A stretch of 15,068 bases of DNA from Selaginella moellendorffii (lineage: Eukaryota > Plantae > Lycopodiophyta): NCBI RefSeq assembly GCF_000143415.4, contig NW_003314264.1:4325432-4340499 (forward strand). Reading direction: 5' to 3'. A program made the position numbers and the translations under genes. The notes beneath the pieces were generated by a model, which worked only from the letters and a program-made list of their open reading frames with translations, ran no database searches and was not told the origin of the DNA. Of this stretch, positions 1,991 through 15,068 are shown piece after piece; the stretch's first letter is position 1; every line of letters starts with the position of its first letter.

Positions 1991-4433
1991 AAGAAAAAAA
2001 AAGGGAGAACGACGGCAGTTGCAGCTGCATTGCTGCAGTGTCGACTACTAGGAGTGATTCCCCATTTCACCGGTGTTGGATATGGTGGGATTTGACGTGA
2101 TCTTCGGGATGGATTGGTTCAATCAGTTCATGGTAGCTCTGCATGGACAAAGTAGAAACCTTGTGGTACTAGCGAATGCCCAAGGAAGAAGATCCAGGGT
2201 GGAAGCCCAGGATCTAAAGGTAAGACAATGCAAGGCCAAAGATTCGTGCTTAAACCTGGTGTCCACAAGAGGACAACTCACTAAAGGGACCGAGGCTGCA
2301 TTTTTGTGCTTACTCTCGGTGAGGAGTGACAAAAAGATAGGAATGGAAGAAGTAACTTTTGTGATCCAGCGGGTGTTGAACCAATTCCGGGATACCATGC
2401 CAGAGGAGCTACCGGCGGGGTTGCCCCCCACACGACCGATAGAACATAAGATTGAGCTGGTCAAGGGTGCTGAGGCGGTGGTTCATCCCCCCTATCGTTT
2501 GAACAAAAAAGAACTTGCAGATCTCAAGCGCCAACTAAAGAAGTTGGTGGACAAAGGGTATGTTAGGTTGAGCAAGTTGCCCTATAGGGCACTGGTGCTA
2601 TTTGTGAAAAAGAAAGATGGATCTATGCGCATGTGCATAGACTACCGGTTGCTCAACAAATATACAAAGAAGAACAAGTACCCTTTGCCAAGGATTGAGG
2701 ACCTGTTTGATAGGTTGGGAAAGGCAAAATACTTCTCGAGGATTGACCTAAGGTCAAGATACTACCAGATCAGGGTAGCAGAGGAAGATGTCGAGAAGAC
2801 AACCTATCAAACGAGGTATGGGAGCTTCGAGTTTCTGGTGATGCCCTTCGGGCTATGCAATGCGCTGGCAACGTTTTCGGCGTTGATGAACCATATCTTT
2901 GTACCCTATCTGGATCACTTTGTGGTCGTCTATATTGACGACATCCTGATCTATAGTGAAATGCTAGAGGAGCATGCCAAACACTTGACGAAGGTGTTTG
3001 AGAAACTAAGGGAACACCAGCTGTATGCTAAAGAGAGCAAATGTGACTTTGCTCAACAAGAGGTAAAGTTTCTCGGGCATGTGGTGGGCAAGGACGGGCT
3101 CAAGGTGGACCCTGAGAAGGTCCAAGCGATCTAGGATTGGGAGCGACCATCAAATGTACATGAGTTAAGGGCATTCCTGGGGCTATGCAACTACTATCGA
3201 AAGTTTATCAAACACTATTCGAGAGTAGCCTTGCCCTTAACGGACCAAATGGGAAAAGGGAAGATGGTATAGACAGCGGAATGCAAGGCGGCATTCGTCC
3301 ACCTCAAGGGGAAGTTGAGGAAGGCTCCCATGTTGGCGTTACCAGACTTTGGTAAGGACTTTGAGGTAAAAACAGATGCTTCAGACTTTGCGTTGGGTGC
3401 AGTTTTGAAGCAAGACAACCATCCAGTAGCGTTCTTCTCGAAGAAGTTGGACAAGGCTCAACAAAAGTGGCCTGCCCATAGGAAGGAATTGTTTGCGGTG
3501 GTCAAGGCGCTCGACACTACCTTGGGAGACACTTCAAGGTTTACACGGACAATGTGGCAACGAAACACTTCTTGTCACAGCCCGACTTGAGGGGAAAACA
3601 AGGTCGGTGGGCCAATGCTTTTGCCGAGTTTGATTGCGAGATTCTGTACAAGCTTGGGAAGAGCAACATCGTGGCAAATGCACTAAGTCAAAAAGCGAGC
3701 TTGAAGTTAGCGATATCTAGCACGACAACAACCTTTTGGGATGATGTGCGGACCGCATACGAGAACGATGGTCTATCACAAGAAGTGTTGCTGAGGAATC
3801 TAGAGGCACGGGAAGCTCATCAAAGAGGTGAGTTGCCAATGGAAGAGAAAACAGGCTATACGGAACACAACAGACTCATATATTACAAGCAAACGAGGGT
3901 GTATGTTCCAGAAGGGGAACTAAGGAAGGTAGCCTTAGAAGAGTGTCATGACGGACCTCTTGCGAGACACGGCGGAGTGCCCAAGACAATGGGCTTACTC
4001 AAGAGGAAGTACCATTGGCCAGATATGGACAAGGATGTTCAAGACTATGTAAAGACATGTCCAACATGTCAGCAAGTCAAAGCCGTGACTAAGGCTAGTG
4101 GGGGCTTGTTACAAAGCATCCCAATTCCAGATCGTCCGTGGAAATGCCCTACGATGGACTTCATCACGGGACTTCCCCCAAGCGAGGGGTTCGATGCGAT
4201 ATTTGTGGTGGTGGATCAATTTTCAAAGATGGCACATTTCATACCCACCACAACAGAAGTGGATGTGGAAGGTGTGGCAAAGCTGTTCTTCGAACAAGTG
4301 GTTCGAGTGCGGGGAAGGCCGGAAGAGATTATCTCAGATCGAGATAAGATCTTCACCAGTAGGTTCTAGAGGACACTCCTAGAACAGTATCGCACCAAGT
4401 TGAAATTCAACACAGCCTATCACCCACAGACAG

Positions 4434-4480
4434 GTAATGGGTATTAAGTCAAGTTTGATGGCACTAACACTTCTTGACAA
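4434..4480 (+). other. 47-nt spliceosomal-type intron in the integrase core (acceptor decayed CAG>CAA)
   Basis: ACAG|GTAATG...CACTAAC (branch point 4464-4468) ACTTCTTGACAA|ATGGA. Removing it restores YHPQT-D-GQMERVN and the exact D,D(35)E spacing. Confidence 0.8.
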
Positions 4481-4898
4481 ATGGACAAATGGAAAGGGTG
4501 AATAGGCAGCCAAAGGATTATTTGTGATGCTATGTCTCAGGAGACCAGACCGATTGGGTTAGTCATTTGGGACTTGCGAAAATGTGTTATAACAACTCAC
4601 CACATTCGAGCATCGGGGTGAGTCCATGGGAAGCCATCAATGGGCGAGCTATTGAAGGTCCTGTGGAACTCGGCGTGGCCGAGTATCATGGAGAGTTACC
4701 CGCAATAGAGGCATTCACGGCGGAAAGACTCAACATTTGGAATCTAGTGAGGGATTCCTTGGAACGGGCTCAACAAAGGCAAACTAAGTACGCGAACCAG
4801 AAGCGCCGGGATGTAGAGTTCCAAGCTGGGGAGAAGGTGTGGCTGAACACCAAAAACCTCAGGCTACCAAGTGGGATCAGCTGGAAGTTGACCCAAAG

Positions 4899-4950
4899 GT
4901 AAAAATGCATGTATTTCTGTAAATGAATTGATCTTGAGTTCCTTAAGCAG
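4899..4950 (+). other. 52-nt GT-AG intron in the integrase C-terminal GPY/F region
   Basis: CAAAG|GTAAAA...TTCCTTAAGCAG|GTTCGCG, AT-rich. Removing it restores KLTQ-R-FAGPYEI and joins ORFs 4567-4902 and 4928-5179 in frame. Confidence 0.88.
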
Positions 4951-5297
4951 GTTCGCGGGGCCTTACGAGATTGAGGCTCGAATCGGTAAAGTGGCTTACC
5001 GTCTCCGACTTCCTCGAAAGATGGGGAAGATGCACCCCGTATTCCACCTGAGCTTACTCAAGTTGTATTTTGAGGATCCGCTTCGCAAGGACCAAGTAAG
5101 ACCTTTACCTGAGGTTATCCAAGGGGAAGAGGAATACGAAGTCGAGGCCATCCTCAATGCGCGCAAGAGCAAGCGATAAGGACGCAAGGTGAGAGAGTTC
5201 CATGTGAAGTGGAAAGGATTTCCACACTGCGAAGCAACATGGGAACCGGAGGAGAACCTAGCGAACGCACGAGATCTAGTGGAGGAATTTCTGCAAG

Positions 5298-5347
5298 GCA
5301 GAACTCTATGTACTTATACAAAATTTAATTAAAAGTATCATTTTAAG
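5298..5347 (+). other. Candidate 50-nt GC-AG intron after the chromodomain
   Basis: AT-rich island CAAG|GCAGAA...ATTTTAAG|AA. Removal extends the frame EEFLQ-E-VEKWHMLGPEGAPK to a consensus donor AAG|GTAAGC at 5392. The GC donor is weak. Confidence 0.35.
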
Positions 5348-5394
5348 AAGTTGAGAAATGGCATATGTTGGGACCCGAAGGCGCGCCGAAGGTA

Positions 5395-5767
5395 AGCTAA
5401 TTAGCATGGGTTAGCTAGGTCGACCAGGCGTAGGTAACTATGCCTGACTCCCTGCGGGGATGTCGAATCCGTAGATGTATTCTACGGAGGTTGGGTTCGA
5501 GTCCCAACCCCCTAGTAAAGCAAGGTTGGGTTTAAGTCCCAACCCCATACTAGGGCGTGGTGAGGTGAGGAATATAAGGACATCTATATTCCGTTGTCAT
5601 GGGCTCTTGGCCGGGGAGGCTAACTTAGGCACACCGCTAAGGGGGGATGCCCCCGAAGACATGGTCAACAAGCCTTAGGATAAAAAAGAGACGTTCGATG
5701 TGGGCATCGAACTTCTTCTATGGGTGGTGGAGTTGTAAGGAACCAACTCGCCAAGGTGTCGTAGGCT
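5395..5767 (+). ncRNA. Highly structured cis-acting RNA region in the retrotransposon 3' region
   Basis: About 13-15 nearly contiguous helices identified by eye, e.g. CAGGCGTAG-GTAA-CTATGCCTG 5425-5446, TCCGTAGA/TCTACGGA 5468-5488, GGTTGGG/CCCAACC 5489-5509 and 5524-5544, CCCTAGTA/TACTAGGG 5510-5555, GGAATATA/TATATTCC 5569-5592, GTTCGATG/CATCGAAC 5693-5712. Confidence 0.6.
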
Positions 5768-5817
5768 AAAGGATCCCCAAAAGCATGACCAAAATGACAA
5801 AGAGTTCATCGGATGGG

Positions 5818-6099
5818 ACCGAGTCGAAGATCGAGTCCAAGACCGACTCTAAGACCGAGTTCGAGATAGAGTCCGGGATCGAGTCCGAGGCCGAATCGGA
5901 GACCGAGTTCGAGACCGAGTTTGAGACCAAGTTCGAGACAGAGTCCGAGATCCAAATCAGGTCCAAGATCGAGTCTGAGGTCGAGTCCAAAGTCGAGTCT
6001 AAGATCGGGTCCGAGATCGAGTCTGAGATCGAGTCCAAGACCGAGTCCGAAGTCGGGTCCAAGATCAAGTCCGAGATTGAGTCCGAGACCGAGTCCGAG
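5818..6099 (+). repeat. 12-bp minisatellite, consensus GAGTCCGAGA(T/C)C, about 23 decayed units
   Basis: Direct reading of the tandem units. It explains overlapping low-complexity ORFs 5785-6105 (ESEI/ESKT), 5921-6172 (SPRS) and 5766-6068 (DSIS, minus strand). Confidence 0.92.
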
Positions 6100-6144
6100 T
6101 ACTAATACGGGTCAAGGGGTGAAAGCCCAAAGCATGCGTCTCCC

Positions 6145-6166
6145 AAGGGGGGGGGGGGGGGGGGGG
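6145..6166 (+). other. Polypurine tract (AA followed by G20)
   Basis: Preceded by GGGTGAAAGCCCAAAGCATG and followed by GGGTTCCAAAAGTATAGTAGGGATAGTG, the same context as the PPT/LTR junction at 8786-8860. Confidence 0.8.
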
Positions 6167-6168
6167 CT

Positions 6169-6902
6169 TTAAAGGGTTCCAAAAGTATAGTAGGGATAGT
6201 GAGGTCTAGGAACCAGTTTTGAAAGAACTCTCCAGTAGGGCTTCCAAATTGACTTGAGGTTGGGATTGGGACCGAGGGGCCTTGGGTGGGANNNNNNNNN
6301 NNNNNNNNNNNNNNNNNNNNNNNNNNNNNNNNNNNNNNNNNNNNNNNNNNNNNNNNNNNNNNNNNNNNNNNNNNNNNNNNNNNNNNNNNNNAAGGGAAAC
6401 CGACTACGATGCTCCCGGCTCATGTGGAGTGGTGCCCCACTTGAGTACCATGCGGCTCATTGGTCCTCGCCCTTCCTAGGGGCTTGAACCTTCCCTTCGG
6501 GATGGAAGTGGGGGGGTAGAGGTACCCATACCGGGCCGTTAGGCCACGGCGTTTCGCCCCGGCGTCCCGAAGCAAGTGTTGCACCCAAGACTTGGGATTT
6601 AGAGGGTCCCATGATCAAGTCTTGTGGTACCAAGGGGTGTTAAGAACCTGGAAGCTTGGTGTGCTTGGCTGCTTGTGCTTGTGGGGAGTGTAGCTGAACC
6701 TTAGGTTCAGTCTAACCTGGGGAGGGGGATTGAGAGAGATTTGGGAATTTGTGGATGGATGGCTAACACTCCGTTGCTCGTGCAGTGAGTAGCTGAAACC
6801 AAGTAGGACCAAGTAAGAGCTGGTACCATAGGCGGGAACCTTGGCGAGGGAACTTAGCAAAAGCCAAGGCAGTGTTGGGCGGATAGACGAGGTAAGCTGG
6901 CA
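6169..6902 (+). repeat. 3' LTR of the chromovirus (interrupted by a gap; 5' TG decayed)
   Basis: Follows the PPT. The first ~30 bp match the LTR start at 8833-8861. Ends TGGCA like the 8829-9196 LTR, with an abrupt switch to AT-rich DNA after 6902. Bases 6730-6888 recur at 14909-15068. Continuity across the gap is assumed. Confidence 0.6.
6292..6391. other. Assembly gap (100 N)
   Basis: Run of N. Confidence 1.
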
Positions 6903-8430
6903 AATTGGAAAGGAAAAATTTGTGGCTTACATATTGTGGGTTATACAATGATTTCTTCTTTAGCATTGAAGTTAGTTCAAATAAGACTCATGATCATTAT
7001 TAGGCAAAACTTGGCTATAGGCTTCTTCGAGATTTTGGTTCTTTGAGTTTTTATGCTCATTGTTCCATTTGTTAAAAGTTGTTGGGGAAGGCATTTTGGC
7101 TTGTTAGCTTCGACGTTGAAATTGGCTTTTGCATCTAACAATCATTAGTGATGATTGACTATCGTCTAGGATAGTTGATTATCCTTATCAAAAGATTTGT
7201 TTGGTTGTTAATGTAGAATGATGTGCCATTCTTCAGAATGGTGGATTCTTTCTTCAACAATGACTATACATCGCTCTTTTGATGGGAGGATTGATGATCT
7301 TTCATGATGGTTAATTGTTCTCTTTTATAGCTTATGGCTTTTCGTAATACCACATATTCTTTATGGTTTACTTTGGATTTGTCTCTTGTGTTTGAGATAT
7401 CGATAAGATGTTACTAACACTTGCTTAAGCAACTTTGTTTCCTTAGTATTATTGATCAAGATCTATCTAGATTGGCTAGTGTGATAGTTGGCATGAATGA
7501 ATGTTTGTTAGTTTTGCAACATTCATTTTATTCTGTTAATTGTTGCTTGAGTTAGTTCTAATAGATTTGGATGTTATTTCCTTCGAGTAATACATTCGCG
7601 AGCATTTTGCTTGCCAGTCAATGATACTTGTGTTCCTTGAGATGTTTTTGGTAAGTTGTTTGGTATACTATCTACAATCTTTGGTAGTTAAGTTTTTTCA
7701 TTGAGTTTACTTGATGATGTACTTGCTATTGAATGTTGTTGGATAATGACTCATGTCTTTATCAATTATGATGATCTTGGTGGTTTCTATACTATACTTC
7801 TAGTTTATCGGATGATAACTTACTTGGAATACTTTTGTGTTCTAATCTAAGATTTATTCATTGATAATTAAGACTCTAATATATGACTTTGATATTATCC
7901 ATGTATTGATCTTTCATTTGGGCGTTTGGGCCAGTATAGACAAACTGGCTTCGACACTTCGTGTGCATGGTGAAATCTCTAATCATGGGGTAGCTATTGT
8001 CGACTGGTCACATCACCTACCTCTCTATCAATGTTCTTTATTCCATTAAAAGGGCGTGACCGTGTAAACAATTCTAACTGCCTGTTTACAATAATCTATC
8101 TAAACTTTACTGATGGGTTTGGTTTCTTTGCTCATGAGAGTTGGGGCCTCTAACTTCTCTCTCTATGTCCCCGTGGGCAGAGGTATATCACACTTTTTCT
8201 AGAGTTGTTTCTTTGGCAGTATTTTAGACTAGAGTATGCATTGACGAAGATGTCAATCTTCCCTAGGGGGGAGAGAGTGTTGCAAATATGACTTCAGGTA
8301 TCAAAAGTTCCCTGTCGGTCAGTCCTTATAGACACTCTTTCCTTACTGCCACGATGACAGAAGATCGGTATTGTTGGACCCTTTATCAATCCCTCTTGTT
8401 CAAGTGTTAGTAAACTGAACTTTGCATCTA
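6903..8430 (+). mobile_element. Strongly decayed T-rich region, probably the 3' region of another LTR element ending in a PPT (8265-8277) and an LTR start TGTTGC (8278)
   Basis: AGGGGGGAGAGAG is immediately followed by TGTTG. The upstream DNA is strand-skewed with no recoverable ORF, and the LTR end is unclear. Confidence 0.35.
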
Positions 8431-9196: not shown

Positions 9197-9753
9197 CCAT
9201 TCCTTCATTTAATGGCCTAAGGCCTTGAAATTTGGGTTCCACACAACTATCCTTTAGACACATGGCATGTGACATGTGGCACATAACATGTCACACATGG
9301 AGGGTTTAGAGGGTTTAAATTCTGCTTCCGTGGTTATCCTATGGTAAAGCACTATAGGATAAAGGGTAAAAATCACATGTGCTACAAATGGTCAAGCAGA
9401 AGCAACAAACAAAACATTGAAGACCATCCTCAAGAAAGTCATCAATGATTCCGGCAAAGACTGGGATGAAAAACTTCTTGACATACTTTGGGCCTATCGA
9501 ATTGCATATAAAGTCACCACCGACATGATGCCATTAAAACTCGCCTTTGGAACATAAGCCATCACGCCAATTGAATTCATCGTCCCAAGCATGCGAGTCA
9601 CCGTCAAGTATAATCTCGACATGCAATTTGAGAAAGGCTTCAGCAACTCGAATGTCTTGACGAGCTTCAACCCAACGCCCTCTAGACACTTCACACCATC
9701 CAAAAACAGCAAAAAGCTCAGCACGATCGACAAGCATCCCGGCACAATATTCC

Positions 9754-10699: not shown

Positions 10700-11540
10700 C
10701 GCCACATGATCAGCCAACCAACAGTTACGGGTCTCAAGAACCCTAACAGGGGAAGCACTTTGATCTGAAGAGAAAGATGCCAGCTCATCCACCCCGGCGC
10801 CTCAGATACATCATACACCATATTCCTAGGCTTCCCAGCAACGACATAACCACTTTGGCTCAAGGACAATGGATTCTAGCTCCAGCCATCAACAAGCCGA
10901 TTATCTGGTCGAATATCAAGATGGTTCCTTTTACTACAAGAATACAACTTCGAAATCGTCCACAAACCTGGCAAAAATCACTAGCAAGCAGATTATTACA
11001 ATTATCAACATGTCTAAGTGCACATACAAAAGGGTCTGGGAGAATGCTCTAATCCTGAATATTACTGTCCGCATGGTTTCTCACCACACCTCTTCAACAT
11101 TTCTCCTACCACTGTTAACTTAACGTCGACACGGGGGACAATTTCAGATTCCAATCACTTCAATCTCCTTGTATTGTCCACAGCCAGTGTCAGACATAGT
11201 GCAGCCTTCTCTTTGCTTAATCTTTGTTAAATTATAATTGGAGAAAATGTGATCTAAGCCAGAATTTCTTTCTTGCTTTCTTACTTTATTCTGATTCATG
11301 TTGTGTTCCCATTGTACTTCTAAATTCACAAAAGACCTGCTCGTTCTTGCGCCTCTATTTGACGTCGATGCTGGCGACCAAGATACTTTTCCAGCCCAAC
11401 CTCAAAGAATCGGTTTCTTCAAGGACCTGCCCTACTTTCCTATCGATCCAGAGGAAGATACAATATTTCTCCTACACTCCATCACAAATTGCATGGCGAG
11501 TAACTTCGGACATTGACACCGGCCCCTCCAAGGAGGGACA
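10700..11540 (+). pseudogene. Fragmented extra ORF(s) downstream of the second integrase, possibly ending at a PPT-like AAGGAGGGA (about 11530)
   Basis: A chain of overlapping short + strand ORFs with protein-like segments (ECSNPEYYCPHG, LCSHC, GFFKDLPYFPIDPEED). No recognised domain. Confidence 0.25.
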
Positions 11541-11591: not shown

Positions 11592-12430
11592 CTAGACAGG
11601 CAGAGCGATACCCCCTGCAGCGCAGAGATCAGCTCCGGTGTTGCGATCGTAGAGACTGCAGCCCTCTTTCATGTCCTCGCAGCTGCGGCGTGCATTCCTG
11701 CAAGACTGCAGGGTGGTGCCCTGAAAAGTTACAGACTTGGTACAAATGGACACTCTGGGCAGGCAAACGAGGGCGCAAACCCCCATGGGGTCTTCAGTAG
11801 GCAGGCAGGTGCTGTTTGCGGATGGATTCTCCAAGTAGATGCAACCGGATTTCCCGAAGCAGCAACCACAGTTATCTTTGGAGACCTCGGCATTGCAGAC
11901 CTCCACAATCGAATCAAGCTTACACTTCCTTCCTGCCATGAGCTCTATCGGAGAGGGCTGAGCTTCCTGAACATAATGAACAAGGCGGTTACCTTGATCT
12001 GTGCCCTGCTGCTCCAGCCGCGGGATGGGGTCACCGTTAACGATGTTGTAGTAACCGCATCCAGGTTGTCGGGGTGGGAGTTTTCCCTTGAGCACCTTGA
12101 TGCCTGATGTTGGGAATCCTGATGAAGGCAATGGGCATACGGCCAACTTCGGACCTTGGCACTCCCGGGTACAAGCCCTTGAATCACCGCCAATGCAAGT
12201 GACTTGTCCTGAACCAGGTTGCAGATAGACACAACCTTTCTTCAGACTACAGCAGTTGCTGCAATCGGTATAGGTGAGGTCACCATTGCAAACCTCGACG
12301 ACACCACCTTGAGCAGCTGCAAGAACAGGAGTCCGAGTTAGAATCGAACATACAAGTGGAGATCTCTCTCACAGGATAACGAGGCCAACAGAAGAAGAAC
12401 GAGCACGGGGAGATTGCCGCTTCCAGCCAT
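11592..12430 (-). CDS. Secreted multi-repeat potato type II (Pin-II, MEROPS I20) serine protease inhibitor, 260 aa, 2 exons (12430-12373; 12316-11592)
   Basis: Signal peptide MAGSGNLPVLVLLLLASLSSAQG, split by a 56-nt phase-1 GT-AG intron (12372-12317, CTAAC branch site) as in Pin-II genes. Motifs CSNCCSLKKGCVY...TC...ACTREC...AVCP and CGCCFGKSGCIY...TC...VCALVC...SIC. The frame is intact. Confidence 0.88.
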
Positions 12431-12571
12431 ACTTCTCTATTGCAGATCTGATGGGCTTTTGAAGTCCAGCATTGGTGCTTTAGAAATGTTCAAAACGTGT
12501 GTCCTTGACACAATGGATATCTTAATGCAGTAAGATAAGCCCTCTCACCACGGATGTGACGGGCGAGCTGA

Positions 12572-12620
12572 ATGTCCTTTGGCAATGCCAAAGGACATCT
12601 AATGCCAAATTGGCATTAGA
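12572..12620. promoter_or_regulatory. Two abutting perfect inverted repeats in the 513-bp divergent intergenic region
   Basis: ATGTCCTTTGGCA-A-TGCCAAAGGACAT (12572-12598) and TCTAATGCCAA-A-TTGGCATTAGA (12598-12620). The regulatory role is inferred from position only. Confidence 0.5.
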
Positions 12621-14965: not shown

Positions 14966-15068
14966 TGAGTAATTAAAACTAAGTAGAACCAAATAGGAGC
15001 TGGTATAATAAGTGGGAACCTTAGCAAGGGAACTTAACTAAAACCAAGGCAGTGGTGGTCAGATAGAC
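14909..15068 (+). mobile_element. Decayed fragment of the chromovirus LTR (homologous to 6730-6888)
   Basis: AAGTAGAACCAAATAGGAGCTGGTA...GGGAACCTTAGCAAGGGAACTTAAC...CCAAGGCAGTG...GATAGAC matches 6801-6888, and homology extends back to TTGAGA...TTTGGGAAT. Confidence 0.85.

Follow-up and report, generated by a model that had tools for sequence, protein, structure and literature searches.

Plant LTR retrotransposons are generally without introns, and a 2025 review names Ogre and EVADE as the exceptions (PMC12786077). Ogre, a plant Ty3/gypsy element, carries one intron of ~274 bp between its gag-protease and RT open reading frames (ORFs), which is spliced in part of the transcripts for Pol translation and kept in the DNA (PMC6317226, PMC12786077). 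In EVADE and other Ty1/copia elements, splicing is coupled to premature termination, and U1 allows full-length RNA to be made (PMC5580714). In HIV-1, a splice donor suppresses a poly(A) site that lies 195 nt upstream of it (PMC3694450). The MTE of musD and the RTE of IAP are mammalian elements for the export of full-length RNA by way of the NXF1 pathway (PMC4588558, PMC12786077); the RNA export of plant LTR retrotransposons, according to the accessible parts of the review, has not been studied directly (PMC12786077). Ty3 has a bipartite primer binding site, the 3' part of which is tRNA-related and located in the 3' untranslated region (PMC4974528).

SM1-Galahad is a Galadriel-related chromovirus of Selaginella moellendorffii, present in hundreds of copies, whose LTR exceeds 1 kb, is bounded by TG..CA and includes 11-25 nt of poly-G (PMC3350952). 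Its other defining traits are a tRNA-Met primer site, a group I chromodomain, a place in the Galadriel clade and over 80% nucleotide identity to its reference. Its main ORF stops after the integrase core and is followed by ORFs of 316 and 309 bp, the last with a chromodomain; the accessible portion of the paper reads these pieces as separate ORFs and describes no RNA structure (PMC3350952). The strings 'intron' and 'splic' occur nowhere in its text, nor 'intron' in its one text supplement.

The element analysed here lies in a window of 15,068 nt of S. moellendorffii DNA, to which all coordinates refer, and its 5' end is outside the window. It is probably SM1-Galahad, an assignment set by the published description and not by sequence identity. 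Its LTR, taken to its most likely right end, has 1198 nt, TGT..ACA ends and a 20-G run (6147-6166). The ORF from ATG 5021 to the stop at 5332 has 309 nt without the stop codon, though in the window copy a stop at 5177-5179 interrupts it; ORF2, from ATG 4582 to 4902, differs in having 318 nt against the published 316. Two introns in the integrase explain the odd three-ORF annotation. The main parts of the element are these:

2058 to 5332, + strand: pol of a Ty3/gypsy chromovirus (protease end, RT, RNase H, integrase, SH3, chromodomain)
4434 to 4480, + strand: intron 1, in the integrase core; 47 nt, GC 0.36, acceptor degenerate in the window copy
4899 to 4950, + strand: intron 2, in the C-terminal part of integrase; 52 nt, GC 0.31, GT..AG
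5719 to 5733, + strand: position of the polypurine tract (PPT), 10/15 purines in the window copy, adjoining the LTR start
5734 to 6931, + strand: 3' LTR, TGT...ACA, 1198 nt including a 100-N assembly gap, right end most likely as given

Pfam places RVP_2, RVT_1, RT_RNaseH, Integrase_H2C2, rve and SH3_Tf2-1 domains in 2058-5332, and chromodomain-bearing relatives match as far as 5290 (tblastn). A protein search with the chromodomain end returned no match, and the closest protein matches of the integrase pieces are distant (44-46% at best). The pol of the window copy is disrupted by stops and frameshifts. The family is very abundant, since 19,021 contigs of a single DNA run map to 4250-5815; DNA depth over the folded block described below is similar to depth over pol. 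Pattern scans of metagenome and viral contigs gave no match. Elsewhere in the window, 694-1714 holds at least six copies of a near-palindromic 19-23-nt motif, belonging to a different element left of the gap, and a cysteine-rich frame of 258 codons on the minus strand (11592-12368) has repeated motifs reminiscent of potato type II protease inhibitors, with no Pfam match at E 0.01.

Introns 1 and 2 are skipped at GT donors in transcript contigs, kept in the DNA and missing from intronless relatives. In contig 9 of run X15, 4433 is followed directly by 4481, the two sides of the joint covering 112 and 77 letters (depth 3.1); contig 10 of the same run joins 4896 to 4949, skipping 4897-4948, which is the 4899-4950 cut shifted by 2 (depth 7.3). 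Both joints come from this single run, a probable RNA run whose RNA status is a guess. When the 47 + 52 nt are subtracted, the spacing of two integrase motifs becomes 146 codons, the commonest value in relatives (34/79). Neither joint is among the best 15 of 37 joints listed for DNA run X1 (depth 134-255), in which summed depth at the listed intron positions exceeds 200,000; contigs drop rare variants, so X1 establishes intron retention as the rule, not that loss never occurs. The notion of the first-pass annotation that this retrotransposon keeps introns is borne out by these two. The likeness to Ogre is that of a plant Ty3/gypsy element with partly spliced transcripts; the single Ogre intron of ~274 bp contrasts with two introns of ~50 nt inside the integrase of this chromovirus. 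A literature search, with most subscription papers beyond its reach, found no description of these introns or of the RNA module downstream of them, nor do the accessible portions of PMC2864245 and PMC13192763 describe this case. What this analysis adds is the RNA backing for the integrase introns, the position of the LTR boundary and a poly(A)/U1 model, set out below.

Because the frame is interrupted by stop codons inside and downstream of the introns, the integrase would require spliced RNA, whereas new copies, which keep their introns, would come from unspliced RNA. It would follow that some rule excludes spliced RNA from copying: a high-copy family with two introns in its integrase must tell spliced from unspliced RNA.

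The first-pass annotation had drawn attention to a dense RNA fold that starts at a consensus splice donor, ends at 5767 and is closed by a TAG at 5762-5764, a would-be acceptor. That 3' boundary is wrong. Unrelated letters precede 5734 in 52 X1 contigs (agreement 0.37), 3 X4 contigs and 1 X20 contig, which fixes the start of the LTR at 5734; 5734-5767 is thus LTR, the supposed block's last domain takes in the PPT together with the edge of the LTR, and the TAG sits in U3. The right end of the LTR is most likely at 6931, judged by the terminal ACA and a fall in GC from 0.55 to 0.33 past that position. Farther along, 14966-15068 is an 82% copy of the 3' part of the LTR (6786-6888), a second, related LTR leaving the window. 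The start of a 326-nt inverted repeat (8831-9156/9843-10168, 87% complementary) resembles LTR 6117-6201, and integrase remains lie between and beyond its arms (9354-9626, 10889-11047).

The folded block is a family trait located between the pol stop and the PPT. The module and the candidate signals at its upstream edge comprise the following:

5301 to 5370, + strand: AT-rich island with the pol stop (5330-5332) and ATTAAA (5328-5333), a candidate internal poly(A) signal
5389 to 5397, + strand: consensus 5' splice site AAG|GTAAGC, a candidate U1 landing site
5395 to 5466, + strand: hairpin 5395-5416 and three-way junction 5420-5466 (z -3.3 for 5392-5467; helix probabilities 0.5-0.93)
5468 to 5555, + strand: core, with hairpin 5468-5488, T-arm 1, and T-arm 2 nested in the stem 5510-5517/5548-5555 (z -7.7; probabilities 0.96-1.0)
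5489 to 5509, + strand: T-arm 1, a tRNA T-arm hairpin with a 7-bp stem
5524 to 5544, + strand: T-arm 2, a tRNA T-arm hairpin with a 7-bp stem
5569 to 5669, + strand: hairpin 5569-5592 (firm, probability 0.97) and a weakly defined multibranch region (z -1.0 for 5556-5670)
5693 to 5712, + strand: 8-bp hairpin before the PPT (probability 1.0)

The density of the fold claimed for 5392-5767 is real: the predicted energy is -156.7 kcal/mol (z -5.25), and the proposed check against shuffled controls gave 0/100 shuffles as stable. A scan of the window in 120-nt segments places 5401-5520 second lowest in + strand z (-5.35). The signal is uneven, lying mainly in 5395-5555 and 5693-5712, and z is no lower than -1.0 for 5556-5670 and -0.5 for 5713-5767. 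Most of the helices listed in the first-pass annotation are also predicted firmly, with mean pair probabilities of 0.8-1.0 for 5395-5416, 5425-5446, 5449-5460, 5468-5488, 5489-5509, 5510-5555 with 5524-5544, 5569-5592, 5641-5654 and 5693-5712; what did not stand is the hairpin 5624-5641 of a supposed four-way junction, absent from both the whole-block minimum-energy structure and the centroid. A suggested search of Rfam with the block matched no family at E up to 1, and no hammerhead core was seen by eye.

The hairpins at 5489-5509 and 5524-5544 were not recognised as tRNA T-arms in the first-pass annotation; their loops fit the T-loop consensus. A search for hairpins of this type found these 2 in the window and 0 in 79 related loci (484,788 bases). 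Both stem from a 35-nt tandem duplication in the core, 80% identical, and they therefore count as one origin. The module shares with Ty3 the presence of tRNA-related sequence in the 3' untranslated region; the Ty3 segments pair with the primer tRNA, (PMC4974528), whereas in the window element the loops run in the same sense as the tRNA and belong to closed hairpins.

Comparison of the listed family variants with the predicted pairs, position by position (the tables miss changes near contig ends), indicates that most family differences are decay of the window copy. Among the variants listed, family-majority letters at 5435, 5437, 5476, 5533 and 5656 fall at unpaired positions, and the one at 5533 brings loop 2 closer to the T-loop. 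The pair 5430/5441, G-U in the window copy, becomes G-C with the majority letter at 5441; majority letters at 5577 and 5583 add two G-C pairs to hairpin 5569-5592, and those at 5572, 5673 and 5753 give wobble pairs. On the other side, the majority letter at 5675 breaks a pair, a majority change at the stem position 5445 has no partner change among the variants listed, and a change at 5640-5642 alters the foot of a small hairpin. Two arguments made for the RNA, a GNRA loop (GTAA) and G-U pairs as a sign of the + strand, are not valid for the family, the differences being mostly copy decay: the loop is a window-copy trait, with other letters at two of its four positions (262/267 and 264/267, X4 depth), and at least two of the G-U pairs (5430/5441, 5578/5583) have C in the family majority. 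The majority loop at 5434-5437 reads GGAG, which is reminiscent of the nucleocapsid-binding loop of a retroviral packaging hairpin.

Parts of the module are shared with sister families. Sister family A has retained 5483-5516 between different flanks (X1, 23 contigs for either side; also X4), and its letters after 5516 form another T-loop hairpin, the stem changed but paired. Sister family B keeps 5692-5736 (the last hairpin, PPT and TGT) before a different LTR, as loose ends behind 5736 indicate in 19 X1, 4 X4 and 1 X19 contigs, and others before 5692/5697; candidates for this family are SM2-Galahad and a non-coding parasite. One 659-nt contig of X19 shows 3 differences from it. More distant elements are another matter. 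The module has no similarity to 79 related loci (best blastn E 0.68), and in moss-type relatives the LTR begins ~80 nt past the chromodomain match and the module is absent. Metagenome contigs contain another chromovirus family, represented by L001:4062-4560 and 13 loci like it, with 81% mean column identity behind the chromodomain and a folded stretch 200-350 nt downstream, probably within its LTR.

Our tentative best explanation is that 5395-5712, with its two T-arms, tags full-length RNA for export and packaging, and that spliced mRNA loses the tag at a U1-gated internal poly(A) site. Termination in the AT-rich island, by the stop codon, would leave spliced pol mRNA with no tag, PPT or 3' LTR, and so useless as a template for reverse transcription. 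The 5392 donor, left unspliced, would bind U1 snRNP and block the internal poly(A) site on a share of the transcripts; these protected, unspliced transcripts would run on as genomic RNA. The module would then mark genome RNA only, with sorting by truncation instead of splicing. Donor positions +5 to +7 are predicted paired (unpaired probability 0.01-0.17), and the hairpin that hides half of the donor in this way could tune the ratio of mRNA to genome RNA.

Truncation of the coding mRNA and its gating by U1 are proposed because of the EVADE and HIV-1 precedents and because a lone ATTAAA lies in the AT-richest 50 nt near the donor. Nowhere else in the element body is GC as low as in the island (0.18-0.22 per 50 nt), and the ATTAAA at 5328-5333, with no X4 family variant among those listed, is the only AATAAA/ATTAAA hexamer in 1991-6931; the donor sits 59 nt past it and the stop codon that it contains. 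The likeness to EVADE is in the proposed logic only, that spliced RNA ends early and just codes for protein (PMC5580714). The EVADE intron is at the protease and its short RNA makes Gag, whereas the introns of the window element are in the integrase and the short RNA would make Pol; the U1 site of the window element would, moreover, lie downstream of its poly(A) site. Our confidence stays on the tentative side because the RNA runs, at very thin cover, showed no 3' end within the island. The complete chain, in which integrase comes only from twice-spliced mRNA, a U1-gated poly(A) site cuts the tRNA-mimic tag, PPT and LTR off every coding mRNA, and only unspliced RNA is copied, is doubtful as a whole.

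The module may instead be a plain 3' export or packaging element on all transcripts, like the musD MTE, with the donor and the ATTAAA incidental and the introns surviving by other means, for example through loss of the primer binding site with a 5' intron, or through export-coupled packaging. We regard this as possible, if somewhat doubtful. Like the MTE and RTE, the module is a multi-stem RNA of 300-400 nt adjoining the 3' LTR, in those cases of an LTR retroelement exporting its full-length RNA; the mammalian elements have demonstrated activity through NXF1 and, in the accessible text of PMC4588558, no mention of T-arms, whereas the window module is a predicted fold with a putative export role. 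A plain element fits the sharing of parts of the module with sister families, and the RNA reads that fall on the module (raw reads of X22, depth up to 3.2). A donor-like GAG|GTAAGC at 6889-6897, 40 nt before the LTR end, provides a second donor (6892) with the same intron-side hexamer; splicing from it in the 5' LTR could remove the primer binding site and thus exclude spliced RNA from copying. However, the AT-rich island, the lone ATTAAA and a donor at the exact edge of the fold are left unexplained, and a plain element does not by itself exclude spliced RNA from copying.

It is unlikely that the 5392 donor opens a third intron with its acceptor in U3, so that splicing removes module, PPT and LTR edge and leaves spliced RNA uncopyable. 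The idea is neat, with the PPT inside the would-be intron. The donor consensus noted in the first-pass annotation is indeed present; it has no family variant among those listed for 5389-5397, is nearer consensus than the donors of introns 1 and 2, and lies 3 nt before the first helix. As a motif it is weak evidence, since the window holds 4 copies of AGGTAAG, with 1.7 expected, and 15/200 shuffles reach 4. The proposed placement of the block inside an intron, and the use of the donor that goes with it, fared poorly in the RNA: no joint from 5391 is listed in six RNA runs (X15, X16, X19, X20, X22, X23), at a very thin cover (9 raw reads in X22 and 3 in X23, too few for joints, ends or strand; 0-3 contigs a run) that leaves rare splicing within reach. 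X15, whose spliced contig ends at 5284, has no cover on the module and X16 none on 5270-5815, gaps that are not counted as evidence. X19 contig 1 runs unbroken through the donor (5270-5444) and X20 contig 3 through the TAG (5641-5815); these read-through contigs, with 13-14 differences each, could derive from full-length RNA, from decayed copies that are read through, or from DNA. At 373 nt and 52% GC, the would-be intron (5392-5764) is unlike introns 1 and 2 (47-52 nt, 31-36%), and its donor is half hidden in a stem. Its closing helix (5671-5675/5763-5767) loses one pair and has another weakened in the family majority. An exon junction 59 nt past a stop codon, as this one would be, invites nonsense-mediated decay.

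A third short intron within the AT-rich island (~5310-5355) seems unlikely: it has a weak donor and no YAG acceptor in the family majority, and X19 reads through it. AGGTAAG also occurs behind the chromodomain in 5/34 relatives, at variable positions in the apparent LTR; these occurrences are not homologous to the 5392 donor and were rejected. Separately, AAG|GTAAGA at 2217-2225, in open frame between protease and RT, is a possible alternative donor.

The T-arms might act as DNA, either as B-boxes for TFIIIC (a Pol III promoter or a chromatin barrier) or as relics of a captured tRNA. A B-box-type motif, exact at 5494 and nearly repeated 35 nt on, speaks for this (the A-box was checked by eye only), but the perfect 7-bp stems exceed the needs of a B-box, and sister family A changes the stem and keeps the pairing. 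The + strand has no run of 4 T from 5345 to 6216, the first being at 6217; ARAGORN reports 0 tRNA genes, there being T-arms only and no cloverleaf; and Rfam, as noted, has no match. We consider a role as DNA decidedly unlikely.

Still more improbable is the absence of any function, the fold being a by-product of local duplications and of hairpins spread with the element. The 35-nt tandem duplication is a source of part of the strongest fold signal, and the minus strand of the block folds as well as the plus strand (z -5.53), so that energy does not indicate strand. Strong local folds also occur elsewhere: 12481-12600 is the strongest of the window scan (z -5.75 on the + strand, -4.05 on the minus strand), and of the 34 relatives long enough to scan (out of 37), 6 reach z <= -4 in at least one 100-nt stretch behind the chromodomain. 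Against this, several unrelated hairpins abut in the module, the T-loop sequence is kept, and parts are common to families with different flanks. An IRES for the downstream Ser/Glu-rich frame 5770-6105, the alternative of the first-pass annotation, is scarcely credible: there are 111 open codons, but they are a 12-nt tandem repeat of the LTR (5820-6099), open on both strands and with only low-complexity Pfam matches below cut-off, and the IRES is left with no target.

If sorting by an internal poly(A) site and an RNA tag is what this family does, a Ty3 element would be separating mRNA from genome RNA in the manner of a retrovirus, and with a defined RNA tag. A compact, bounded module with tRNA-like arms offers a direct way into the question of how genome RNA is chosen by a plant element.
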